This document shows positions 3,884-41,243 of a DNA stretch of 64,000 bases, one piece after another. The notes beneath the pieces are model-generated. The model searched no databases, was not told where the DNA came from, and saw nothing but the letters and a program-made list of their open reading frames with translations. The stretch comes from a virus: IMG/VR virus record IMGVR_UViG_3300009130_000013, positions 29,196 through 93,195 of that record; one strand, 5' to 3'. The translations under genes were made by a program, and so were the position numbers. Numbering within the stretch: the first letter of the stretch is position 1; each line of letters starts with the position of its first letter.

Positions 3884-4099
3884 ATGGCTAAGAAAGAAGT
3901 AAAATCTACTCAATATCGAGCAGAAGAAATGGACCTGGCGGCTTCACAGGCTGTATATGGTTTACAATTAAGTAAGGATAAGGCAATACGTTTTATTCTT
4001 CGCAGGGTAAAAGGAAGTGATGTTAAGCAGGCTCGTAAAGCTCTTCATTATGTTTGTACGAGTTACAAAACTGATGAACCAGATTATGGGTTCAAATAA
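3884..4099 (+). CDS. hypothetical protein
   Basis: SD GAGG, in operon. Confidence 0.65.
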   Translation: MAKKEVKSTQYRAEEMDLAASQAVYGLQLSKDKAIRFILRRVKGSDVKQARKALHYVCTSYKTDEPDYGFK

Positions 4100-7779: not shown

Positions 7780-8271
7780 ATGACAATGAGTTTAGCACGT
7801 GGTCTGACCATGCTGAATACAAAAAAGCGAAAACGTAAGACTATTACGGAAAAGCAAAGATTAAAGTATAAGGCAGATCTTAAAGCACATAACAAACGTT
7901 TGAGACAACTACATCTACATAATTCTCAAATGAACCTTGATGATTATATTGATTATGTTCAAGGTTATTATCAGCCACGTAACACATTTCAAGTCCGTAA
8001 AACAATTACCGGGCCTATTTCCACTTCACCTAGGAGTGTAGTGTCAACGGTTAGCACGGCGGTCTCCAAAACCGCAAGTGGGGGTTCGAATCCCTCCGCT
8101 TCTGCCAACCATTCTTGGCGTAACAATTCTAACGGTGGTACTAAAGATTGGAAGGAGCAACAAGAACGTATTGAGATTAGTAAACAATATGCTATTGTTC
8201 CAGCTTATAACAAAGGCCCGTACATGGTCGTATCAAAAGAGGATTTAAAGACGGCCGGGAAGAAGGTCTGA
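7780..8271 (+). CDS. conserved phage protein containing an in-frame tRNA
   Basis: Basic N-terminus and C-terminal PAYNKGPY motif; uninterrupted frame through the tRNA. Confidence 0.7.
   Translation: MTMSLARGLTMLNTKKRKRKTITEKQRLKYKADLKAHNKRLRQLHLHNSQMNLDDYIDYVQGYYQPRNTFQVRKTITGPISTSPRSVVSTVSTAVSKTASGGSNPSASANHSWRNNSNGGTKDWKEQQERIEISKQYAIVPAYNKGPYMVVSKEDLKTAGKKV
8032..8107 (+). tRNA. trnW: tRNA-Trp (anticodon CCA), encoded 3' CCA
   Basis: Acceptor AGGAGTG/CGCTTCT, D stem GTGT/GCAC, anticodon stem GCGGT/ACCGC with loop CTCCAAA, T arm GGGGG-TTCGAAT-CCCTC, G73, CCA; 76 nt. Confidence 0.95.
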
Positions 8272-8475
8272 TTGTCCGACTCAAAAGATTCACATATATT
8301 TAAAAATGACAGCGGTAGAAAGATTGTAAGAATTCCTGTAAAGGAATTTGTTTGTATAGGTGAAACGCCACCTATGGATCATCCACACGTTTTTTTAACT
8401 ATGGGCAATAAAGATTTTATGTATTGTCCTTATTGTAGTACGAGGTATGAATATGGCGGGAATGATGAAACGTAA
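8272..8475 (+). CDS. zinc-finger (zf-CHCC) domain protein
   Basis: C-x8-HPHVFL...CPYC, as in alphaproteobacterial NDUFS6-like proteins. Confidence 0.85.
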   Translation: MSDSKDSHIFKNDSGRKIVRIPVKEFVCIGETPPMDHPHVFLTMGNKDFMYCPYCSTRYEYGGNDET

Positions 8476-9115
8476 ATTTAAAAAATGGACATATATAATC
8501 TTAGGATTTATATTTGGATTAATATTAACATTTGTTGTAGGAACATTTTACCCTAACTTTTATGTTGTATCAAAATTACAACAACAATTTGATGATAAGA
8601 TTCAATCTGTTTGGGAAGACTTTGGTATAATAGAACCTGCTATAGAATATTCAAACAATAACGAATTTGTTTTATCTGTTAGTAAATGTATTCAATGGAT
8701 AAATTTAGGCGTTAAAACACACGAAAGAATAGATAGAGAAATTATCATAGCAATGGCTGTTCTTGAAACAGGATACGGAAAGAGTAGATTTGCTAACGAA
8801 GGTAATAACTTATTTGGTATTAGAACTTGGGATGATGAAATACCACAACTAAAACCATTAGGAAATCCTGACGTTGTTTGGGGTGTAAGAGTATACAAAA
8901 CCAAGTGCCAATCAGTTCAAGATATGATAAGTACTATTAACAGACATCCAGCCTATGAACTGTTTAGAATTGAAAGAGCAAAACAGTTAGAAACAAATTC
9001 TATTAACATTAATAAACAAATCGATCTTCTAAACAAATGGAGCACCAACCCTGACTACACAAAACTAATTAAGCAAAAGGTTATAAAGATTAAAAAAATA
9101 TTAGAGAATGGGTGA
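8462..9115 (+). CDS. membrane-anchored glucosaminidase (GH73/Bax-like)
   Basis: TM anchor; AVLETGYGKSRFANEGNNLFGI; WSTNPDY. Confidence 0.85.
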   Translation: MMKRKFKKWTYIILGFIFGLILTFVVGTFYPNFYVVSKLQQQFDDKIQSVWEDFGIIEPAIEYSNNNEFVLSVSKCIQWINLGVKTHERIDREIIIAMAVLETGYGKSRFANEGNNLFGIRTWDDEIPQLKPLGNPDVVWGVRVYKTKCQSVQDMISTINRHPAYELFRIERAKQLETNSININKQIDLLNKWSTNPDYTKLIKQKVIKIKKILENG

Positions 9116-26083: not shown

Positions 26084-26531
26084 CAAATTTAAAAGCAGTT
26101 TAAGGTTTGGCAACAAACTAGAAAAGAATCATGCTCTTAGAGTAATCGAGCAAATCCATCCAAAGTGTACTATACACGAACCAGACGAATACAGAGAGAA
26201 TGGATTAGCAGTTCCTGATCATATAATAAAGAAAGGCAAAAAAATCGTAGCCTTTTATGACAGCAAAAACAAACGTTCAACATATAAAGTTACAGGTGAA
26301 CCAGAAAGAATTTGGAGTGTTGATGAGAAACTTTTAGAATATAGAAAATATGCTCTAAAACATAAAGCACCTTGTTACTTAATATTCTATCATAAAGATA
26401 GCGATAAAAATAATGTGTATATTGTGGATGTTAGTATTGAACCAAAGTTCTATAGAAGAATCAATAACAAGTACGGTGAACACTGGTACGGTTATTACAT
26501 ATCACAAACAACACCATATTCAATTGATTAA
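26061..26531 (+). CDS. putative PD-(D/E)xK nuclease-fold protein
   Basis: G..LE...PD...YDSK. Confidence 0.55.
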   Translation: MPTLKQSNKFKSSLRFGNKLEKNHALRVIEQIHPKCTIHEPDEYRENGLAVPDHIIKKGKKIVAFYDSKNKRSTYKVTGEPERIWSVDEKLLEYRKYALKHKAPCYLIFYHKDSDKNNVYIVDVSIEPKFYRRINNKYGEHWYGYYISQTTPYSID

Positions 26532-26558
26532 AAAGCCCTCTGTAAGGAGGGCTTTTTT
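26530..26558. terminator. bidirectional intrinsic terminator
   Basis: AAAAGCCCTC-tgtaag-GAGGGCTTTTTT between convergent genes. Confidence 0.85.
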
Positions 26559-26562
26559 ATGA

Positions 26563-26634
26563 TTACTTTTTCTTTTTCTTTTTATTTTTAGCCTTCGCTT
26601 TTTTAGAAGGCTTTTTTTTCTTTTTCTTAGCCAT
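26563..26634 (-). CDS. poly-lysine micropeptide (23 aa, not in ORF track)
   Basis: MAKKKKKKPSKKAKAKNKKKKKK; SD GAAAGG; TAAATA box at 26678-26673. Confidence 0.6.
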   Translation of the reverse strand: MAKKKKKKPSKKAKAKNKKKKKK

Positions 26635-26687
26635 GTTAATGACCTTTCTAAAGGCTTAAAGCCTTTAGCTCGTATTTATGAGTCCAG

Positions 26688-27284
26688 TTACTTAATATCT
26701 TCTATCTTATCACACAACTTTAAGGTTTTAGCCTCTTTGGCACTCAACCATACGTCCTGTGGTGGAAGTAAAAACTCTCTAATTTTCTTTTCAGTTAACC
26801 CTGTACATTTTTTGTAGTGGTTAATCATACGTTCTGTAGTTAATTCTAGTTCTTTAACACGAGCAAATAATTCGTGTTCTTTACCAGCACTACCCCAACT
26901 ATATTGATGTGATAGTATTGCTGTATTAGGTGTAAGTATTCTACGACCTTTCTTACCTGATATGAATAGTAACAAGCCACAAGAAGCAATCATACCTAAT
27001 CCTATTGTTCTAACAGGTATTGAAGATGCTCTCATAACATCAATTAAAGCAAAACAGGCATTTAAGTCTCCACCTCTGGAGCAAATTCCCAAGGTTAACT
27101 CTTTTGCCTTATTCCCTTTCTTCATATTTTCAGCAAGAATCCAATCGACGATCGGGCTCAAAGTGTCCATTGTTACATCACCCATGAACACATACATACC
27201 ATTCATAAGTAATTCTATTTTAGGTAGCATCATTTCTGGTCCAGGTGGTTTTGGGGCACCGTTAGCCGGTTTTTTATCTGACAT
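26688..27284 (-). CDS. clpP: ClpP protease proteolytic subunit
   Basis: SRGG, IASCG (Ser), LSHQ (His), QDVWLSAKEA (Asp). Confidence 0.9.
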   Translation of the reverse strand: MSDKKPANGAPKPPGPEMMLPKIELLMNGMYVFMGDVTMDTLSPIVDWILAENMKKGNKAKELTLGICSRGGDLNACFALIDVMRASSIPVRTIGLGMIASCGLLLFISGKKGRRILTPNTAILSHQYSWGSAGKEHELFARVKELELTTERMINHYKKCTGLTEKKIREFLLPPQDVWLSAKEAKTLKLCDKIEDIK

Positions 27285-27325
27285 TTTCTTGTTCTCCTTG
27301 ATCCTTTGTTATATGTTCCATTGTG

Positions 27326-27844
27326 TTAAAATCCCACACTAGAGTCGTTGTCTTCATAATTACGATCTTTTGTTATATGTTCCATTTTATTAAAGTCCCA
27401 CAACTTTAATGTTTTTTCTGTAAATTCATTACCCGAATCCTCAGGTAACATCATTTTTTGAGGAAGTCCTTGTCCTTGCCTTTGTTTGGCTTCCGATAAT
27501 TTCTTTTCTCTTTCTTTAGTATATTTTATTTTATATGATCTAGGTTCCATTGACCTTGACATATCAACAGCCCAAATGTATATCCATTTTTGCTCATGTC
27601 CAACTAAATGAGTTATATAAACTTGCTCTTGTTTAGAGTTAAAATTAGTTGGATAGCCGAGCATATTTTCTATATTTGTTTTAACACTCATAGAAAGAAA
27701 TAAGATTAAAGGTATCATAACATACGTCCACCTATTTACCTTACCATATCTAATCATTGTTAACAATGAAAAAGACATTAAAACAAATATAGAAATAGTT
27801 AAGATTGTCTTAACAGTTTCAAAATCGAAATAACTAAAGACCAT
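27326..27844 (-). CDS. 2-TM membrane protein, partner of MotA/TolQ-like pair
   Basis: Two TM helices, LGYP, WIYIW, PRSY; overlaps upstream gene. Confidence 0.7.
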   Translation of the reverse strand: MVFSYFDFETVKTILTISIFVLMSFSLLTMIRYGKVNRWTYVMIPLILFLSMSVKTNIENMLGYPTNFNSKQEQVYITHLVGHEQKWIYIWAVDMSRSMEPRSYKIKYTKEREKKLSEAKQRQGQGLPQKMMLPEDSGNEFTEKTLKLWDFNKMEHITKDRNYEDNDSSVGF

Positions 27845-28562
27845 GTTCCGCTCCTTCTCCTGGCGCTGGATTTAAATTCGTACTTGGAATATGACCTTCT
27901 AAATCACCTTCCGACTCATAAGCATTTTGAGTTGGTTTGCCTTTAATAAGATGTGAAGGCCTATTATTAAAACCCACCCAGTTACCTTTCTTGTCTATAG
28001 TAAATCTGACTAGGCTTTTTTCTTCCCAACGTCTACTGTATGTTCCTTCGCCTTTATACATAACTTTATACGGGTTAATTTTAATAACTTCTATTGTATA
28101 CTTTGTTGGTACCCTGTCACCTTTTATACCACCATCTACTTTCTTTACAAAAGGTCTCGCATATACGTGAAGCATAACTTGGTATTCACCAGCATAAGTA
28201 CCTCTTAATGTAACTATCTCCCTATTCAATTCTATTATAGTTTCATTACCATATTCATCTATCATTTTATCGTTTTTAGAACCTAAGTCATCTTTTTCAA
28301 GATTCATAAAACCACTAGTCTTGTTTTTAAAACTAACTACTCCACCACTTGGATCAGAAACCCAAAGATCTATATCATCTTTTGATTGGTGTTCCCATTC
28401 CATTACAATTATATACTCTGCTTTTTTTACTATATCAGCCTCTTTTGCTGGTGGTTGAATAAGCAAAAAAGCAATAATAAACATGGCTCCGAATCCTGCT
28501 AACAAGATCCAGAGCATATCTAAGAACGAGGTTATACTTTTAAATTTTGTTCTATTCGCCAT
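27834..28562 (-). CDS. ExbD/TolR/MotB-like single-TM protein with atypical extracytoplasmic domain
   Basis: SFLDMLWILL (TM Asp); W...DDIDLWVSDPSG beta-rich domain. Confidence 0.7.
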   Translation of the reverse strand: MANRTKFKSITSFLDMLWILLAGFGAMFIIAFLLIQPPAKEADIVKKAEYIIVMEWEHQSKDDIDLWVSDPSGGVVSFKNKTSGFMNLEKDDLGSKNDKMIDEYGNETIIELNREIVTLRGTYAGEYQVMLHVYARPFVKKVDGGIKGDRVPTKYTIEVIKINPYKVMYKGEGTYSRRWEEKSLVRFTIDKKGNWVGFNNRPSHLIKGKPTQNAYESEGDLEGHIPSTNLNPAPGEGAEHGL

Positions 28563-29043
28563 CTTCTTGATCAAATTCTATATTCATTAATTGAACTTTT
28601 GTAATTAAAGCACCTATCATACCACATATAGTAGTATACATCGCAGTTGAAAGTCCCCTAGCCATATGACCCAAAGCGTCTTTAAGATCTTCTGGGTTAC
28701 TTGGATCTATCTGGTCGAATATCATTCCAAATAAATATATCATTCCTGCGATCGTTCCAATCAATCCTAATGTCATCATTGTTTCTGAACAGAACCAACA
28801 GACATCAATAACCTTTTTGGTGAATCCATTATACTCTTTATCTTTAGCATCAATGTTAGTTCTATAGGCGGCAATACCTGTTAGTATTGTTGCTATTAAA
28901 AATACGCCATATATTATAAAACTAATATTAGTAACGTCAGCATGATAGATATCTTTAAATACACCAAAATGCCATAACGGATAAATGCCACACAGAGTAA
29001 TCGTTGTAAGCAACCACCAACGAGGCAGAGTTTTTCTTATCAT
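28552..29043 (-). CDS. MotA/TolQ/ExbB proton-channel family protein
   Basis: LGLIGTIAGMI...GLSTAMYTTICG. Confidence 0.88.
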   Translation of the reverse strand: MIRKTLPRWWLLTTITLCGIYPLWHFGVFKDIYHADVTNISFIIYGVFLIATILTGIAAYRTNIDAKDKEYNGFTKKVIDVCWFCSETMMTLGLIGTIAGMIYLFGMIFDQIDPSNPEDLKDALGHMARGLSTAMYTTICGMIGALITKVQLMNIEFDQEDGE

Positions 29044-30065
29044 TTTGTTTTTCCTTCTGCTTCATCTAGAGCTCCGTTGAATTCCCTTATACGTTTAATA
29101 ACTGATAAAAAGTCTACGATAGTAGTCCATCTATCTATAAAGAATCCCATCGAACTTTCAACTCGTCCAAAGGCGTTAAGCACTTGGAACAAGACCCCTA
29201 GAGTAATTAGTTGATCAAAGTATGCTGGTGCTAATACAATTAAAGCTAAATTACCAACAGCTAATCCAAAAGAAGTTTGCCAAACACCAAAGCCCATATA
29301 CCAGTTAAACAGTCTGTAATAGTTCTTTTTAACTGCCGAGAACATTGGAAATAAAACATCTGTAGCTCTTTCTTTAAAATTGTCTTCTGAAAATACTAAT
29401 TGCTTCCTAAAAGTTGCTTCTACTTTCTGGTTGTTATATTCAAGTTTAGGAAGTTTCCAACCCAGAACAACTGATATTAGTGTACCACCCAATGATACGC
29501 CTAATGCTACCCATACTAAAAACCCAGGAATTATTTGGCCATTCCATACTGGTAAGCCTTCTGATAAATTCCATAGGATTGGAAGGAAGGCAAACAATAT
29601 CAATATAGACGAAAAGAATCCAGTAAACAATCCTTGTAATGTTTTACCGAATATCATTAAGTCTTCTTGAATACGCTGGCTTCCACCTTCTATTTGAGCG
29701 TCACAATTTTCCCACCTTCTTAGGTAGTAGTGTGTATTAGCCTCTCGCCAATGGAAACAATATCTTTGTGTTTGCCACGTGGCGTAAACGGCTATTGGAA
29801 CATACAAGCCTATAATTTCAATAAATGAAGGCATGGTATCTTCTGTTAGTGTAACGAAATCCCAAATCCTCTCGAGATTAAACCCTAGAAATAATTCCCA
29901 AAATCTATCTTCTTGAAGAGATTGAATAGCGTCATAAATTTCTTTATTCCAAGCATTATAAAATACTAGAATTTCTACAGTATACCAAGATATACTTAAT
30001 AATAATGACAACATAACCCAAGCATAAAAGGCCTGACTTCGTTCTAAGAAAAATGACTTTAACAT
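29040..30065 (-). CDS. sbmA: SbmA/BacA-like peptide transporter
   Basis: NAWNKEIYDAIQ, FHWR, IEGGSQRIQED, LEYNNQKVEATFRKQLVFSED, W.TIV...SV.KR. Confidence 0.88.
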   Translation of the reverse strand: MLKSFFLERSQAFYAWVMLSLLLSISWYTVEILVFYNAWNKEIYDAIQSLQEDRFWELFLGFNLERIWDFVTLTEDTMPSFIEIIGLYVPIAVYATWQTQRYCFHWREANTHYYLRRWENCDAQIEGGSQRIQEDLMIFGKTLQGLFTGFFSSILILFAFLPILWNLSEGLPVWNGQIIPGFLVWVALGVSLGGTLISVVLGWKLPKLEYNNQKVEATFRKQLVFSEDNFKERATDVLFPMFSAVKKNYYRLFNWYMGFGVWQTSFGLAVGNLALIVLAPAYFDQLITLGVLFQVLNAFGRVESSMGFFIDRWTTIVDFLSVIKRIREFNGALDEAEGKTK

Positions 30066-30077
30066 TGACTATCTCCT

Positions 30078-30902
30078 CTAATCATGTGTCCCTGACAGTA
30101 AAACTCCTTCACCTGTCACTCCCCAAAAGTTTTTATAATGTGTAGCCAATGTAGCAAGTGCTGGCTTGTACTGAAAATCTCTTGGATTTAAAAAGTACAT
30201 TGACGTAGATGGTACTTGAAGAAACAAGTACTTAATATCATCGTCTGTTATACCTAACTGATCAAGCAACATCATTATTGCCGCACTAGTTCTGTACGTT
30301 TGTGCCTCTAAAGCTCGTTTACCAACTTGTGGTAATACTTCATCTGGAGTTCTAGGACTATGTATACCAAAGTACACGTCACCAATTAAGTAACGTTTAT
30401 CTCCGCCTAAAAATATTAATGAACACGAAGAAGCACACATAACTTTGCCGTCCTTACTTGGCCATCCTGGTATTGATACCTTGCCAGGATCGTATAGTAT
30501 TTCACCGTCTTCATTAATAACAGGTGTATCTCTAACTACTGTAACTACATTTCGATGTTTTAAATGAGCCGCCAAACAAGCCCCATCAATTAATGATCCA
30601 CCGGGGCTTTCTAATATTACAGAAAAAGGCGAGCCATCATTAGGCAATTTAGCTACAATCTTTTCACAGTCGTCAACTTGAACGTAACCAGTCATTGAAT
30701 ATAATGACTTTGATAATTGTTTAAATTCTAACCCCGGTAATTGTTCGTCATTAAGTGAATGAGTATAGGGCGGGAATGGCGAAGCACCAGAACCTGTATC
30801 TTGGTTGCTAACAAACCAAAAAATATTTCCCACAAGTATCGATACTAATATAATGCCCGATAATAGGAACCATCTAGTTTCCTGAAAAAACGACTTAAAC
30901 AT
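30078..30902 (-). CDS. membrane-anchored ClpP/crotonase-fold exported protein
   Basis: N-terminal TM; LESPGGS, CASSCSLIFLGG, GIHSP. Confidence 0.75.
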   Translation of the reverse strand: MFKSFFQETRWFLLSGIILVSILVGNIFWFVSNQDTGSGASPFPPYTHSLNDEQLPGLEFKQLSKSLYSMTGYVQVDDCEKIVAKLPNDGSPFSVILESPGGSLIDGACLAAHLKHRNVVTVVRDTPVINEDGEILYDPGKVSIPGWPSKDGKVMCASSCSLIFLGGDKRYLIGDVYFGIHSPRTPDEVLPQVGKRALEAQTYRTSAAIMMLLDQLGITDDDIKYLFLQVPSTSMYFLNPRDFQYKPALATLATHYKNFWGVTGEGVLLSGTHD

Positions 30903-31093
30903 ACCTTTGTTTTCCTTTTCTTCTTAGTAGCCATTTTTGTTTCCTATTTGGGCTTAGAGTTATTTCTGTGACACCTATTGTCTTAATGATAGTCTACACA
31001 TCCTTATTAAAATGTTATAGTATTATTTATTTTAAAATCAAACCATAGATAAATGGCCATTAAAGTTTTTATTTTTTTAACATAAATTAGGTC

Positions 31094-31156: not shown

Positions 31157-31774
31157 ATGAAAAAAACAATATTAACAGATGTAGATGGAGTACTCTTAAA
31201 TTGGGAGTATGCTTTCGATGTTTGGATGATCGAACAAGGATTTAGAAAACAAGAAGGCGAAGAATTTGTATACGGAATGAATGTTCGTTACGGAATTGAA
31301 CAATCACAAGCCAAAAAACTCATTAAAACCTTTAATGAGAGTGCTGTAATGGGGTTTATTCCTCCTTTAAGAGATGCTGTTGAATATGTAACTAAAATGG
31401 CTGATGAAGGATATACCTTTCATGCTATTACTAGTATGAGTACACAATATCATGCTAAAAAACTTCGTAAACAAAACTTAGACAAATTATTTGGAGAAAA
31501 TGTATTTACAGAAGTTGTTTGTTTAAGTACAGGTGCTGATAAAGACGAAGCATTAGCAGTATACAAAAATAGTGGAATGTGGTGGATCGAGGATAAAGTA
31601 GTTAACGCTCATGCGGGAGCAAGAGTAGGATTAAAGCCTATTGTTATGGAACATGGTTTTAATATGAACGATGAACATTCATTTCCTGTAGCAAAAACCT
31701 GGAAGGACATTTACAACATTGTCAAAGGTAAATCAATAAAAACCGATATACTCAAGATTCAAAAAACTGGATAA
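31157..31774 (+). CDS. HAD-family 5'-nucleotidase-like phosphatase
   Basis: TDVDGVL, ITS, K, WIED motifs. Confidence 0.85.
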   Translation: MKKTILTDVDGVLLNWEYAFDVWMIEQGFRKQEGEEFVYGMNVRYGIEQSQAKKLIKTFNESAVMGFIPPLRDAVEYVTKMADEGYTFHAITSMSTQYHAKKLRKQNLDKLFGENVFTEVVCLSTGADKDEALAVYKNSGMWWIEDKVVNAHAGARVGLKPIVMEHGFNMNDEHSFPVAKTWKDIYNIVKGKSIKTDILKIQKTG

Positions 31775-32460: not shown

Positions 32461-33183
32461 TTAAATTTCGCCATATAATGCTAAAACCTCCGCAACAGCT
32501 GGATGCCGTTCGATGTCTTTGTTTGTGAACTGACAAGATCTAATATATCTCATTTCTTTTCCATTGGTGATCATGTTAAAATTCAATAACCCATTATTAG
32601 AATCTTTCTTATCAGCTTGTTTGACGTCACCGGTTACTACAATCTTTGAACCTTCACCTAAGCGGGTAAGTAACATCTTTATCTGACTTGGAGTGGCATT
32701 TTGCATTTCATCTGCTATGATCCACGATTTTTTAAAAGTTCTTCCTCGCATGAATGCTAGTGGACTAATTTCTATTATTTCTTCTTCTAACATCCTAGTA
32801 ATTTCTTTAGGACTGTAATATTCCTTCAACACGTCAAAGAGGGGCTTTGTCCACGGTTCCATTTTCGCATTTAAATCACCTGGTAAGAAACCATGTCGTT
32901 CGTCATCAACTCCTACAGCTGGTCTTGTTAATACTAATTTATTAACGTGACTTAATCTCAAAGATCTAATAGCCGCTAACATGGCCAAATATGTTTTACC
33001 AGTACCAGCTGGGCCGCTAGTAATAGCTATTGAACATTTGGGGTCTGTTAGTATATCCACATAGTGTTCTTGTGCTAAAGATCTAGGTATTATTTGTGGG
33101 GGTTTATTACGAATGTTGTCAAAATGTAATGTATTATCAGCATAAGCTAGGTTATGCTTTTGTTTTCTGTGTTTTCTTGACAT
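32461..33183 (-). CDS. phoH: PhoH-family ATPase
   Basis: GPAGTGKT, LTRPAV, GFLPG, MRGRT, DEMQN, TRLG, GD..Q.D, RHP. Confidence 0.95.
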   Translation of the reverse strand: MSRKHRKQKHNLAYADNTLHFDNIRNKPPQIIPRSLAQEHYVDILTDPKCSIAITSGPAGTGKTYLAMLAAIRSLRLSHVNKLVLTRPAVGVDDERHGFLPGDLNAKMEPWTKPLFDVLKEYYSPKEITRMLEEEIIEISPLAFMRGRTFKKSWIIADEMQNATPSQIKMLLTRLGEGSKIVVTGDVKQADKKDSNNGLLNFNMITNGKEMRYIRSCQFTNKDIERHPAVAEVLALYGEI

Positions 33184-37329: not shown

Positions 37330-38160
37330 ATGACTAGAGACCCTTACGAAGTATTGGGTGTATCCCCCGACGCAGATGAAAAAACAATAAAAAAAGCCTA
37401 CAAAAAAATGGCAATGAAACACCACCCCGATCGTACGGGCGGTGACGAAACCAAAATGAAGGAAGTAACTGAGGCTTATAATAGAATTACTAAAGGGGAC
37501 ACACAACAAAATCCATTTGGGGATGGGTTTCACTTTTCTACTAATTCTAATATGTCGCAAGAAGATTTACACGACATACTATCAGGATTTGGCGATTTCT
37601 TTACAAGAGGATTTGGCGGATTTGGCGGACCACACCCTGATGTAAAATATAGAGATAGTCAAAGAAAAGGCCGTGATGTCGCAATGGACTTACCAATATC
37701 CTTTCATCAAATGTGGTTTGGGCATGAACATTTCTTACAAATAAATGGTAAAACTCTTAGTGTTAAAACACCTCCAGGTGTTCGTAATGGTGCTAGAATA
37801 CGTTACACAGGGCACGGACTGCCTCCTAATCAATTAGGTACTCCGGGAGACTTAATAATCACGGTACTTGTACAGCAAGACGATAAGTACAGTATAGAAG
37901 GTAATACAGTTATTGCTAACCAGCACATATCAGTTTGGGACGCAATCATCGGAGGAGACGTTGAATACAAACACGTTGATGATAGAGTTCTCAAAATCTC
38001 AATTAATCCAGGAACACAACATGGTCAGCTTTTTCGTATACCAGGATATGGTGTTAACAATGGTGACCTAATAGTTAGAGCTGTTATTGAAGTTCCGAGT
38101 TCTAAGAGCTTGACAAAGGAGCAAAAAGAAGTTATAATGAAATGGAAGAATAAAAAGTGA
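37330..38160 (+). CDS. dnaJ: DnaJ/CbpA-type chaperone (no zinc finger)
   Basis: DPYEVLGV, HPD, G/F region, C-terminal domain. Confidence 0.92.
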   Translation: MTRDPYEVLGVSPDADEKTIKKAYKKMAMKHHPDRTGGDETKMKEVTEAYNRITKGDTQQNPFGDGFHFSTNSNMSQEDLHDILSGFGDFFTRGFGGFGGPHPDVKYRDSQRKGRDVAMDLPISFHQMWFGHEHFLQINGKTLSVKTPPGVRNGARIRYTGHGLPPNQLGTPGDLIITVLVQQDDKYSIEGNTVIANQHISVWDAIIGGDVEYKHVDDRVLKISINPGTQHGQLFRIPGYGVNNGDLIVRAVIEVPSSKSLTKEQKEVIMKWKNKK

Positions 38161-38693: not shown

Positions 38694-38923
38694 GAACATA
38701 CAAATGGATTGAAGGAATAGTTAGACCAGTAAAAGGCGTTAAAGAAGAATACAAAGATATAAACGAAGAAACTGAAGACAGAAGTTTTAAAAAAGCATTA
38801 AAGTCATTTCAGAATAAAGTTAAAGAATGTCGCTGGTTAAGAGTACAATATAAAAGTAAAAAAGGTAAAGACCTAGATCGTTGGGTTGAAATACCATTAG
38901 GACGTAAGAAGAGAATTGGATAA
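38690..38923 (+). CDS. hypothetical protein
   Basis: Coupled ORF. Confidence 0.65.
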   Translation: MRTYKWIEGIVRPVKGVKEEYKDINEETEDRSFKKALKSFQNKVKECRWLRVQYKSKKGKDLDRWVEIPLGRKKRIG

Positions 38924-41243
38924 AATGATAAAACACAACCCGGAAATGGATTTAATCTTAAGCAAGGCTTATGACTTTGCTCATAAACTTAATCACAAAT
39001 ATGTAACTATCGAACACTTGATGTTGAGTTTAGTTAACTATAAAAATTTTAAAATTATGCTTGAAGAATTTGGTTGCGACCAAGAAAATCTTGCTTTAGA
39101 AATTAAACATCACGTTGAAACATTACCCATAGCATCTAAATCGCCAGTTGAACCTCAAAAGACACACGGCTTAGATAGAGTATGTAATAGAGCATTTACT
39201 CAAGTACTATTCAGTGGTAGACAACATTTACAAACTATAGACTTGTTTCATAGCATAATGACTGAACAAAGAAGCTATGCTTTTTATTTGTTCGCAAAAT
39301 ACAATGTTGACAAAGATGAACTAACAAAATTCTTTAATAAAACATATACCGGTGATGATGAAAAAGCATTACATCAACAAATGGCACAAGAAACACTAGG
39401 CGAGTATTGTACAAATTTAAACGATCAAGCTAAAGTAGGAAAGATAGATCCTGTTATAGGCAGAGAAAACGAAATTGAAGAAATGTGCCAAGTACTAGCA
39501 AAGCGAAATAAATCAAATGTATTACTAATAGGTGAGCCAGGTGTAGGTAAAACAGCACTTGCTGAAGGACTTGCTATGAGAATTTTAGATGGCGATGTTC
39601 CTGATTACCTAAAGAACTCTCGTGTTTACAACTTAGACATGGGTAGTTTAATAGCTGGTACAAAGTACAGAGGAGAATTTGAAGAACGATTAAAAGAAAT
39701 TATTTCCGCGGCAAAAATATTGCCAGGATCAATACTTTTCATTGATGAAGCACATCAAATGAGAGGTGCCGGCGCCGGGGGAAACAGTGGACCAGATTTT
39801 ATGCAAATGCTCAAACCAGCATTGGCTAAAGGAGATGTGAAAGTAATCGCATCTACTACTTGGGAAGATTATACGTCTAGTTTTGAAAAAGACAGGGCGT
39901 TTATGAGAAGATTTTATAGACTAACAGTTGAAGAGCCCACACCAGAGGTAGCGAAAGATATACTTACTGGTCTTAACAAATATTTTATGGAATTTCATAA
40001 AGCGAAAATATTTCCAGAGGCTATTGAAGCCGCTGTTGACCTTAGCGTCAGGCACCAACCAGATAAAAAGTTGCCTGACAAGGCAATTGATTTAATAGAT
40101 AGTGCCTGTGCTAGACAACGTTTCCTAAAACAAACTAACTATAAGATTCGTAAGTCTAACATTATAGAAGAACTATCTAAAGCAACTAGAATACCATTAG
40201 AACAATTAAACTCAGAAGCTACAAAGAGCTTGGCTGATATAGACGGTCATATTAAAACAAAACTATTCGGTCAAGACCACGTTATAGATACTGTGGTTAA
40301 TAAAATTATGGTATCTAAAGCAGGACTTAAGAGTATTCATAAACCAATTGGTGTATTTTTACTATTAGGTCCAACTGGTTCTGGTAAAACAGAGTTTGCT
40401 AAACTACTTGCTGAAAACAGTCAAGCAAAACTATTAAGATTTGATATGAGTGAATATCAAGAGAAGCATACAGTCGCAAGACTAATTGGTGCTCCTCCAG
40501 GTTATGTAGGTTATGAAGACGGTAATCTAGGAGGTGGACTATTAATTAGTCAAATTGAAAAGAATCCACACGCCATTGTATTGTTTGACGAGATAGAAAA
40601 AGCACACCCTGATGTTAGTAACGTTTTACTACAACTAATGGACGAAGGCTTTATTACTAGTACAAATGGTAAAAAAGCAGATGCTAGAAATACAGTTATC
40701 TTAATGACATCTAACTTAGGTGCCAAAGACAATGAAATGAATAATATAGGATTTAGTCAAGAACTAGAAAAGTCGGGTGAAGAAGATAAAGCAATGAAAA
40801 ACTTCTTTAAACCTGAATTTAGAAATAGACTAGATGGAGTATGTAAGTTTAAACATTTATCAAATGACGTAGTAAGAAAAATTGTTGGTAAGTTTAAAAA
40901 TGAAATAAATGACTTACTAGCAGAAAAAGGTATTAAGATAGAATTTATGGAAAAAGCTGTAGCCCAATTAGCCAAACTTGGCTATGATAAGAAAATGGGT
41001 GCTAGACCACTTGGTCGAGTTATTGAAGATAAAATTAAAATACCTCTATCTAAAAAGATATTATTTGAGAGTATTAAAGAAGGTTCTTTAATATTAATTG
41101 ATTATACGAAAAAAGAATTTAGTATAACAGTTAACCCTAACGAGGCTAATGCTGATGGCGAATTACAAGATACCAAATCTAAAACCGGAGTCGATAAATC
41201 AGGTCTTATTGTACTGGACCAATTTAAACCAGAACCTAAATAG
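38916..41243 (+). CDS. clpA: ClpA ATP-dependent unfoldase
   Basis: N domain, GEPGVGKT and GPTGSGKT Walker A, IGF loop. Confidence 0.93.
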   Translation: MDKMIKHNPEMDLILSKAYDFAHKLNHKYVTIEHLMLSLVNYKNFKIMLEEFGCDQENLALEIKHHVETLPIASKSPVEPQKTHGLDRVCNRAFTQVLFSGRQHLQTIDLFHSIMTEQRSYAFYLFAKYNVDKDELTKFFNKTYTGDDEKALHQQMAQETLGEYCTNLNDQAKVGKIDPVIGRENEIEEMCQVLAKRNKSNVLLIGEPGVGKTALAEGLAMRILDGDVPDYLKNSRVYNLDMGSLIAGTKYRGEFEERLKEIISAAKILPGSILFIDEAHQMRGAGAGGNSGPDFMQMLKPALAKGDVKVIASTTWEDYTSSFEKDRAFMRRFYRLTVEEPTPEVAKDILTGLNKYFMEFHKAKIFPEAIEAAVDLSVRHQPDKKLPDKAIDLIDSACARQRFLKQTNYKIRKSNIIEELSKATRIPLEQLNSEATKSLADIDGHIKTKLFGQDHVIDTVVNKIMVSKAGLKSIHKPIGVFLLLGPTGSGKTEFAKLLAENSQAKLLRFDMSEYQEKHTVARLIGAPPGYVGYEDGNLGGGLLISQIEKNPHAIVLFDEIEKAHPDVSNVLLQLMDEGFITSTNGKKADARNTVILMTSNLGAKDNEMNNIGFSQELEKSGEEDKAMKNFFKPEFRNRLDGVCKFKHLSNDVVRKIVGKFKNEINDLLAEKGIKIEFMEKAVAQLAKLGYDKKMGARPLGRVIEDKIKIPLSKKILFESIKEGSLILIDYTKKEFSITVNPNEANADGELQDTKSKTGVDKSGLIVLDQFKPEPK

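Follow-up and report, generated by a model that had tools for sequence, protein, structure and literature searches.

The window studied here is a 64,000-nucleotide (nt) stretch of DNA, with a GC content of 34%, from a 93-kb viral record in IMG/VR (IMGVR_UViG_3300009130_000013). It carries an operon of six genes, g1 to g6, which occupies positions 30902–26688 of the minus strand and encodes, in this order, a membrane-anchored ClpP-fold protein, a short-form SbmA/BacA (SLiPT) transporter, three small membrane proteins that resemble an ion-driven motor, and a ClpP-family protease subunit. An earlier reading of the window (the original prediction) had described six tightly packed genes at this site, with three overlapping junctions. 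We confirmed all six open reading frames (ORFs) at their expected positions, and the overlaps were found at the g2/g3, g3/g4, and g4/g5 junctions. The operon is among the few minus-strand stretches of the window, and the GC skew flips at 26–34 kb. The source is an uncultured marine jumbo myovirus: the completeness estimate of the record (26%) corresponds to a genome of roughly 350 kb, and the family-B DNA polymerase is nearest to those of jumbo myoviruses, at 43–48% identity (Sinorhizobium phage Phosso, Agrobacterium phage Atu_ph07, Vibrio phage 2.275.O, and 350-kb phages of Salmonella and Escherichia). A nucleotide search of cultured phages returned zero matches.

The gap between g1 and g2 is 12 nt and contains a GAGGAG ribosome-binding site, and that between g5 and g6 is 41 nt with an AAGGAG site. 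The g2/g3 junction is an ATGA overlap and crosses the boundary between two of the modules described below. The g3/g4 overlap measures 11 nt if g4 starts at the ATG at 28562, which is favored by its homologues and by a 242-residue member of its cluster, or 23 nt with the TTG at 28574 given in the ORF list. The g4/g5 overlap is again 11 nt.

The g1 gene (30078–30902) encodes a protein of 274 residues that gave zero matches in Pfam or PHROG, zero matches when its profile was compared with PDB sequences, and zero tblastn matches in cultured phages; its metagenomic homologues number in the hundreds and are all unnamed. In an alignment of 32 sequences, an N-terminal transmembrane (TM) helix is joined by a linker that is acidic and variable to a strongly conserved domain with the motifs ILESPGG, C156-A-S158-x-C160, and G-I-H181-x-P. 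Ser158, His181, and four cysteines are invariant in this alignment. The AlphaFold model (AF2; pLDDT 84.4) matches ClpP in Foldseek (probability 1.0, E 5e-7) and in an independent aligner, VIA (Z 14.0, root-mean-square deviation [RMSD] 2.9 over 157 aligned residues). Other VIA matches were SppA (Z 10.8 and 10.2), the NfeD-type 1510-N protease (Z 9.2), and crotonases (Z up to 9.6). The description of g1 as a membrane-anchored protein of the ClpP/crotonase fold that retains Ser and His thus holds, with crotonases scoring lower than ClpP. A comparison with the profile of the operon’s own ClpP family using hhalign gave a probability of 89.8% (E 1.8e-6), in a register that aligns the ESPGG of g1 with the oxyanion loop of ClpP and S158 with its catalytic serine. 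His181 follows Ser158 by 23 residues, compared with 25 residues in g6. NCBIfam models related to ClpP reached only E 0.01–0.03 with g1, which is below threshold.

Distant bacterial relatives of g1 have the ESPGG, CASAC, and GxHQ motifs in common with it. Their sequences include Sec signal peptides as well as partner domains of extracytoplasmic type, such as a PAN domain in a protein of Roseovarius and Sel1 repeats in one from a betaproteobacterium. Because of these signal peptides, the invariant cysteines, and the charges around the TM helix, we read g1 as periplasmic, and it is most likely a membrane-tethered serine peptidase. In the closest g1 clade only, g1 and g2 share an M(F/L)KSFF N-terminus, which amounts to a match of 17 nt or six residues. 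An origin of g1 and g2 by duplication was considered on this basis and rejected; the match is too short, and the comparison of the g1 N-terminus with the SbmA N-terminus in NCBIfam gave E 0.24.

The transporter gene g2 (29040–30065) encodes 341 residues and matches the Pfam family SbmA_BacA (PF05992) at E 1.8e-78, with 264.6 bits against a cut-off of 24, over profile positions 5–313 of 315. Its alignment to Escherichia coli SbmA (PDB 7p34; E 4.8e-53) covers residues 83–394 and omits the first ~80 residues of that protein, which is why we refer to g2 as a short form. In line with this, the top-scoring NCBIfam model is that of a short “putative transporter,” PRK12369 (299.6 bits, below its cut-off of 385), and the model for E. 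coli SbmA, PRK11098, scored 229.9 bits against a cut-off of 492. In E. coli SbmA, each residue of a glutamate ladder consisting of Glu193, Glu203, Glu276, Glu287, and Glu378 is required for proton-coupled transport (Ghilarov et al. 2021, PMC8442886). Glu203 is the proposed first proton-binding site, and its loss abolishes transport in E. coli (PMC8442886). Using E. coli numbering, g2 retains Tyr116, Arg190, Glu193, Glu276, Arg280, Lys281, Glu287, Asp288, and Arg385. The ladder is nevertheless incomplete, since Glu203 is replaced by a glutamine (Gln144 of g2) and Glu378 by aspartate.

The same replacements mark the whole clade of SbmA proteins that are encoded next to g1. Among its 27 members, the position of Glu203 is occupied by glutamine in 26 and by asparagine in one, and that of Glu378 mostly by aspartate. 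Glu203 is kept by 51 other phage SbmAs, by five SbmAs that are linked to the g3-g4-g5 triad in loci without g1, and by six short SbmAs from Alphaproteobacteria (38–44% identity). Hence, among the homologues compared, only the g1-linked clade has replaced the proton-entry glutamate by Gln or Asn, and the aspartate in place of Glu378 is likewise confined to it. Because the change is limited to this clade, the gain of g1 was accompanied by an alteration of the transporter at a site critical to its mechanism, and this covariation is an argument for g1 and g2 working together. Given the loss of Glu203, we infer that the energy coupling or the gating of g2 differs from that of E. coli SbmA. Peptide import driven by the proton-motive force, as originally proposed, can therefore not be taken over unchanged for a protein that lacks the equivalent of a residue essential in E. 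coli.

The g3 gene (28552–29043; 163 residues) encodes a miniature channel subunit of the MotA/ExbB/TolQ family, with a match to MotA_ExbB (PF01618) at E 1e-6 and 29 bits, against a cut-off of 22.9; homologues from Rhizobium phages and bacteria score 26–38 bits with the same family. The Pfam matches of g2 and g3, like that of g6 described later, agree with the earlier assignments of these genes. The TM motifs G..GT..G and tA..TT..G of g3 are conserved from marine phages through Rhizobium phages to bacterial chromosomes. Bacterial homologues contain an extra, probably cytoplasmic segment of ~70 residues between predicted TM helices 2 and 3, which has been lost in the phage proteins. The best matches of the ~110 core residues of g3 in libraries of defense proteins were to ZorA (PADLOC, 1.2e-8; NCBIfam ZorA_4, 4.4e-6). 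Assignment to Zorya or another defense system was rejected, since the PADLOC and NCBIfam scores lie far below the cut-offs and the peptidoglycan-binding domain of ZorB, as well as ZorC, ZorD, and ZorE, were not matched.

The product of g4 (27834–28562; 242 residues) combines a single N-terminal TM helix with a β-sandwich domain. Asp19, located in this helix, is invariant in 32 sequences and also present in the homologues from Rhizobium phages and bacterial chromosomes; an Asp-bearing N-terminal TM helix is a hallmark of ExbD, TolR, and MotB. No Pfam or NCBIfam model, including those of ExbD, MotB, and TerD, matched g4 at E thresholds from ≤0.1 to 1. In the AF2 model (pLDDT 79.5), the soluble domain resembles TerD, with VIA Z scores of 9.6 (133 residues, RMSD 3.7) and 8.2, the next match being at 6.1, and with Foldseek E-values of 1.3e-4 to 6e-4. 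The conserved acidic motifs of this domain, DDxDLW and KDDLG..ND, recall the Ca2+ sites of TerD, and the domain is probably periplasmic. Of the earlier description of g4 as an ExbD/MotB-like protein, the helix with its invariant aspartate stands, while the TerD-like periplasmic domain departs from it: g4 is no homologue of ExbD or MotB by sequence or by periplasmic fold, and is like them in its TM helix only.

The third gene of this group, g5 (27326–27844), was expected to encode a protein with two TM helices, and both helices are visible in an alignment that includes Rhizobium phage homologues, together with a small C-terminal domain and the motifs LGYP and PR.YKI. No family match was found for g5 in Pfam, PHROG, or NCBIfam. 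Its structural neighbors in the Atlas are viral hypothetical proteins; one of them belongs to a viral cluster with a phage lysozyme domain, which is a weak lead. We take g3-g4-g5 to be a branch of the family of 5:2 ion-driven motors that is both new and minimal.

The last gene of the operon, g6 (26688–27284; 198 residues), encodes a ClpP-family serine protease subunit (CLP_protease, PF00574; E 3.7e-27, 95.8 bits against a cut-off of 20.2), in which the triad Ser101–His126–Asp177 is invariant in 13 homologues. Its scores lie below the NCBIfam cut-offs for ClpP equivalogs, and its best NCBIfam matches are ClpP subunits. A plus-strand gene 10 kb from g6 (38916–41243) encodes a 775-residue ClpA-type double AAA+ unfoldase with the Pfam domains Clp_N, AAA, AAA_lid_9, AAA_2, and ClpB_D2-small, two Walker A motifs, and a single IGF loop (residues 611–613). 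This unfoldase is the likely partner of g6, the two forming a probable phage ClpAP protease. Together with a DnaJ protein (37330–38160, plus strand; J domain and DnaJ_C), these genes make up a phage-borne proteostasis set. The best PHROG match of g6 is annotated as “head maturation protease.” A role as prohead protease is disfavored by the 198-residue ClpP size, the intact triad, the NCBIfam ClpP matches, and the IGF-loop ClpA, and the ClpAP type is favored, short of proof. Two related jumbo phages, of 342.6 kb and 246 kb, encode two ClpP paralogues each, of which the canonical ones score 215–259 bits and the divergent ones 113–122 bits with PF00574; g6 (95 bits) resembles the divergent type. 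The presence of two paralogues hints at a pair like ClpP1/ClpP2.

Surveys of gene neighborhoods showed that the operon is widely conserved and is a composite of three separable modules, namely g1-g2, g3-g4-g5, and g6. A survey seeded with SbmA yielded 27 viral contigs with g1 directly upstream, and in a survey seeded with g1, SbmA was found directly downstream at 65 of the 66 informative viral loci, a near-obligate pairing that makes g1-g2 the tightest unit of the operon. At the lone exception, a secreted g1 with a signal peptide is encoded, and SbmA is absent. The motor triad is also fixed; at essentially all of the 78 viral loci found with g4, this gene is directly preceded by g3 and directly followed by g5. 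The triad stands alone at 51 of these loci, occurs with g1-g2 at 12, and occurs with another SbmA lineage at eight. At least three gene orders were observed (g1-g2-g3-g4-g5-g6, g6...g3-g4-g5-x-g1-g2, and g6-g1-g2-g3-g4-g5), and in four contigs, g1-g2 and the triad are 28–47 kb apart within the same genome. The original prediction depended on the genes co-occurring elsewhere, and dozens of viral contigs, with several different orders, show that they do. A view of the operon as one indivisible six-gene system has to be given up, considering the three modules and the many triads (51 of 78) that stand alone.

The other triad-linked SbmA lineage (34–35% identity) has kept Glu203, lacks g1, and is located 0–2 kb downstream of the triad, either directly after it or beyond two or three small lipoprotein genes. 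This second lineage joined the triad independently. Since two independent SbmA lineages are linked to the triad and the linkage survives rearrangements, a functional relation is suggested, in which the triad and SbmA may share a process or a complex. At three of the loci (L205, L210, and L233; at ~8260–8920), the genes between g5 and SbmA are two or three tandem lipoprotein genes, whose products have 70–79 residues and a VVGC or SSC lipobox. Bacterial triads are followed by a lipoprotein of ~260 residues with a weak DUF3108-like match.

The triad is carried by hundreds of viral contigs, with 234 matches confirmed. Cultured phages of Rhizobium have it too, namely RHph_I1_18 (EVB91_122–124), RHph_N3_13, members of the P10VF group, and 16-3, which is temperate (p038, p040, and p042); neither SbmA nor g1 was found in the triad-bearing Rhizobium phages. 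Of 401 alphaproteobacterial genomes sampled, 53 also contain the triad, embedded in large chromosomal contigs and neighbored by genes that look like housekeeping genes (RodA/FtsW-like, APRT-like, and cytochrome c-like, by N-terminal sequence only). We propose that phages acquired the triad from Alphaproteobacteria. In two unrelated Rhizobium phages, a gene for a trypsin-like, probably periplasmic serine protease lies 1–2 kb from the triad (p036 of 16-3 and EVB79_071 of RHph_N3_13), and these neighbors are a possible analogue of the association with the g1 peptidase. The pairing of g1 with SbmA was not seen in bacteria: g1 was absent from six alphaproteobacterial SbmA loci (±1.5 kb), and two bacterial relatives of g1 had no neighbor that looked like SbmA.

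Upstream of g1, the original prediction had pointed to a TAAATA box at 31029–31024. On its own, this hexamer is a weak signal, with 56 copies in the window; what gives it weight is that it forms part of the heptamer ATAAATA (31030–31024, minus strand, ~122 nt upstream of the g1 start), which is about fivefold under-represented in the window (nine sites observed versus 45 ± 7 expected). Similarly, TATAAATA has one site, with 13 expected. The nine ATAAATA sites lie at 4096, 11220, 13374, 36256, 42208, and 49195, at 26679 and 31030 on the minus strand, and, in one case, antisense within g3, and the majority are intergenic and shortly upstream of a gene on the same strand. The avoidance and the intergenic placement make a T4-type late promoter plausible; the motif looks like such a promoter under purifying avoidance within genes, and late expression of the operon from this candidate box is plausible. 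When sequence snippets of relatives were compared, ATAAATA was not conserved at the corresponding distance upstream of g1.

Two small ORFs and two hairpins border the operon. An upstream ORF (30848–30934, minus strand; MATKKKRKTKV... from the ATG at 30934) overlaps the start of g1 in a different frame. Its ATGGCT start, ~30 nt 5' of the g1 ATG, stands beside a TAAGCC(T/C)AAATAG-like block and recurs in the two closest relatives (L002 and L009). The ORF might act as a leader or in translational coupling. At the other end, g6 is followed by a 23-codon poly-Lys ORF, MAKKKKKKPSKKAKAKNKKKKKK (26562–26633, minus strand), which has its own late-type ATAAATA (26673–26679) and a hairpin (26648–26668). 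A terminator-like hairpin (GCCCTC-cttaca-GAGGGC followed by TTTTT; 26530–26552, minus strand) was recognized by eye 3' of g6 and the mini-ORF and is absent from the list of the consensus terminator scan. The poly-Lys ORF was discarded as a candidate for a conserved seventh gene, for there was no K/R-rich ORF 3' of g6 in 10 related loci. Next to the operon lie genes for an NT5C-type 5' nucleotidase (31157–31774, plus strand) and a PhoH-like protein (32461–33183, minus strand), which are kept beside it in the closest relatives (L002, L008, and L009).

The reading that we prefer, and hold tentatively at somewhat less than an even chance, is that of a late phage envelope operon made up of a proteolysis–import pair (g1-g2), a separate motor triad (g3-g4-g5), and a cytoplasmic ClpP (g6). 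In such an operon, g1 would cleave polypeptides of the periplasm or the envelope at the surface of the membrane, and the resulting peptides would be carried into the cytoplasm by g2. The triad would act as a separate transducer, with proton- or ion-motive force as its input and mechanical work in the periplasm as its output. Here, g3 would form the channel ring, g4 the Asp-bearing axle, whose TerD-like sandwich would face the periplasm and probably bind Ca2+, and g5 a third partner that receives force or serves as an anchor. In the cytoplasm, g6 and the phage ClpA-type unfoldase would degrade proteins and peptides, leaving it to host peptidases to finish the process. The benefit to the phage that we favor is the salvage of amino acids and peptides, or the clearance of envelope proteins, late in infection. 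The sequence of cleavage outside, import, and degradation inside put forward in the original prediction remains the most economical account of g1, g2, and g6, and keeps the standing of an inference.

A closer coupling would be achieved if g1 docked on the Glu203-less SbmA to form a proteolysis-coupled importer. No longer capable of accepting the initial proton by itself, the transporter would be gated or energized by the mini-motor or by g1, so that the assembly would be a harvester of periplasmic or envelope proteins driven by the proton-motive force. We consider this version improbable. A motor that did energize g2 would be the first among the 5:2 motors known to serve a transporter of the inner membrane, as opposed to a target in the outer membrane or the cell wall.

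Several findings speak against the preferred envelope operon. With regard to its enzymes, no conserved counterpart of the triad aspartate of ClpP was found in g1, where the position is S, T, A, or N (manual register in the 32-sequence alignment), which means that the catalytic chemistry may differ; and g2, in view of the missing Glu203 equivalent, may be uncoupled, differently gated, or not an importer at all. A search for longer proteins, which is weak evidence, found no fusion of g1 with SbmA. With regard to linkage, the frequency of solo triads implies that the triad does not need SbmA, and neither SbmA, g1, nor ClpP was found within 9 kb of the bacterial chromosomal triads. Linkage of g6 is loose, with no g6 found within 7 kb of many g1-g2 loci. 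At the genome level, the triad and an SbmA lie 42 kb from each other in a complete phage genome of 342.6 kb that lacks g1; another phage, 91% complete, contains the triad alone, and a contig of 67% completeness carries g1-g2 and no g4.

Observations of this kind could also mean that the six genes are mere neighbors, that is, independent host-derived auxiliary genes that pile up in a hypervariable, counter-oriented island of jumbo phages. The modules do occur apart, both at the locus and at the genome level, stand-alone SbmA genes with varied neighbors are common in marine viral contigs, and the island is flanked by other auxiliary genes, the nucleotidase and PhoH genes. Mere accumulation, on the other hand, does not sit well with the adjacency of g1 and g2 at all but one of the informative loci, with modules that stay together through at least three gene orders, with the independent recruitment of a second SbmA lineage beside the triad, or with start and stop codons that overlap across the g2/g3 module boundary. 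We regard this explanation as unlikely.

Two further explanations give the operon a coherent task other than proteolysis and import. The genes might provide superinfection exclusion, which the original prediction had offered as its alternative, or envelope defense. The targets would be the ejection proteins of incoming phages, bacteriocins, or peptide toxins, to be destroyed or dislodged at the inner membrane by the peptidase and the motor, with SbmA clearing the fragments. All parts except g6 would be found in the envelope, phages often carry membrane exclusion genes such as T4 Imm and Sp, the core of g3 resembles the defense motor ZorA, and the temperate phage 16-3 has the triad near its gene for a periplasmic trypsin-like protease. 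Exclusion genes are usually early, however, and the late-type promoter fits them poorly; the tail of ZorA as well as ZorB, ZorC, and ZorD are absent, with ZorA scores far below the cut-offs; and the triad belongs to the core chromosome of many Alphaproteobacteria, where its neighbors look like housekeeping genes by their N-terminal sequences, a setting unlike that of a defense island. These points leave exclusion quite unlikely. Alternatively, the operon might control lysis or the state of the envelope late in infection, with the motor sensing or dissipating the membrane potential and the peptidase remodeling periplasmic or cell-wall-linked proteins to time or aid lysis. The late-type candidate promoter and the envelope proteins would suit this task, as would the lysozyme-domain cluster among the structural neighbors of g5, for what that lead is worth. 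But Pfam and PHROG recognized no holin, endolysin, or spanin in the operon, the chromosomal triads of bacteria argue for a housekeeping role in the envelope, and we know of no role of SbmA in lysis, which makes lysis control very improbable.

Research on SbmA/BacA proteins has centered on their role as entry routes for antimicrobial peptides, while what they do for the cell is poorly understood. Genes for them are carried by abundant ocean phages. The g1-linked SbmA clade, which coevolved with a dedicated ClpP-fold peptidase, probably periplasmic, and lost the proton-entry glutamate, offers a natural experiment on what such a transporter is for and how it is energized. The motor triad is found in about one-eighth of the alphaproteobacterial genomes sampled (n = 401) and is widespread in viral contigs. 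Since cultured Rhizobium phages carry it as well, among them the genetically tractable 16-3, its function is open to direct tests. For marine virology, the operon would add a nutrient or remodeling function at the level of the envelope to the auxiliary genes of phages. New are the clade-specific loss of the proton-entry glutamate, the pairing statistics of g1 and g2, and the independent recruitment of a second SbmA lineage.

Literature searches agree with the original prediction that no system of such composition has been described, and a search for literature on phage SbmA genes or phage Mot/Exb-like motors found nothing relevant in the library covered. The individual parts can be compared with known systems. 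Like the ClpP peptidases (S14), g1 has the ClpP fold, the ESPGG oxyanion loop, A-S158, and I-H181-x-P at a ClpP-like spacing; it differs by an insertion of ~30 residues before the catalytic serine, by its four invariant cysteines, and in having no evident triad aspartate. With SppA and NfeD (S49), g1 shares a membrane anchor and, presumably, a catalytic domain outside the cytoplasm, and it differs from them in having His in place of their Lys. Compared with known SbmA/BacA transporters, g2 stands out in that it is always preceded by a ClpP-fold protein that is probably periplasmic, a pairing not seen at the six bacterial SbmA loci (±1.5 kb).

The triad shares with ExbBD, TolQR, and MotAB a first subunit that belongs to PF01618 and has the TM motifs of the family, and a second subunit, encoded directly downstream with an overlapping start, that has an aspartate in its TM helix. 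As in ExbB-ExbD-TonB and TolQ-TolR-TolA, the three-gene unit contains a third membrane protein, g5, in the place of TonB or TolA. This protein differs from TonB and TolA in its two TM helices, and similarity to either was not detected; there was also no Pfam match to ExbD, MotB, or TonB. Relative to other 5:2 motors, g3 is small, at only 163 residues, the cytoplasmic domain of its bacterial homologues having been trimmed, and the periplasmic domain of g4 is TerD-like instead of having the ExbD/TolR or OmpA-like fold. Zorya motors differ more strongly, since the g3 core scores 25.9 bits against a cut-off of 500 bits and g3 lacks the long cytoplasmic tail of ZorA. With TerD, a tellurite-resistance and Ca2+-binding protein, g4 has the sandwich fold in common; unlike soluble TerD, it is fused to a motor-type TM helix and has no sequence-family match. 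Within the ClpP family, finally, g6 is a member with an intact triad and is of the divergent type.

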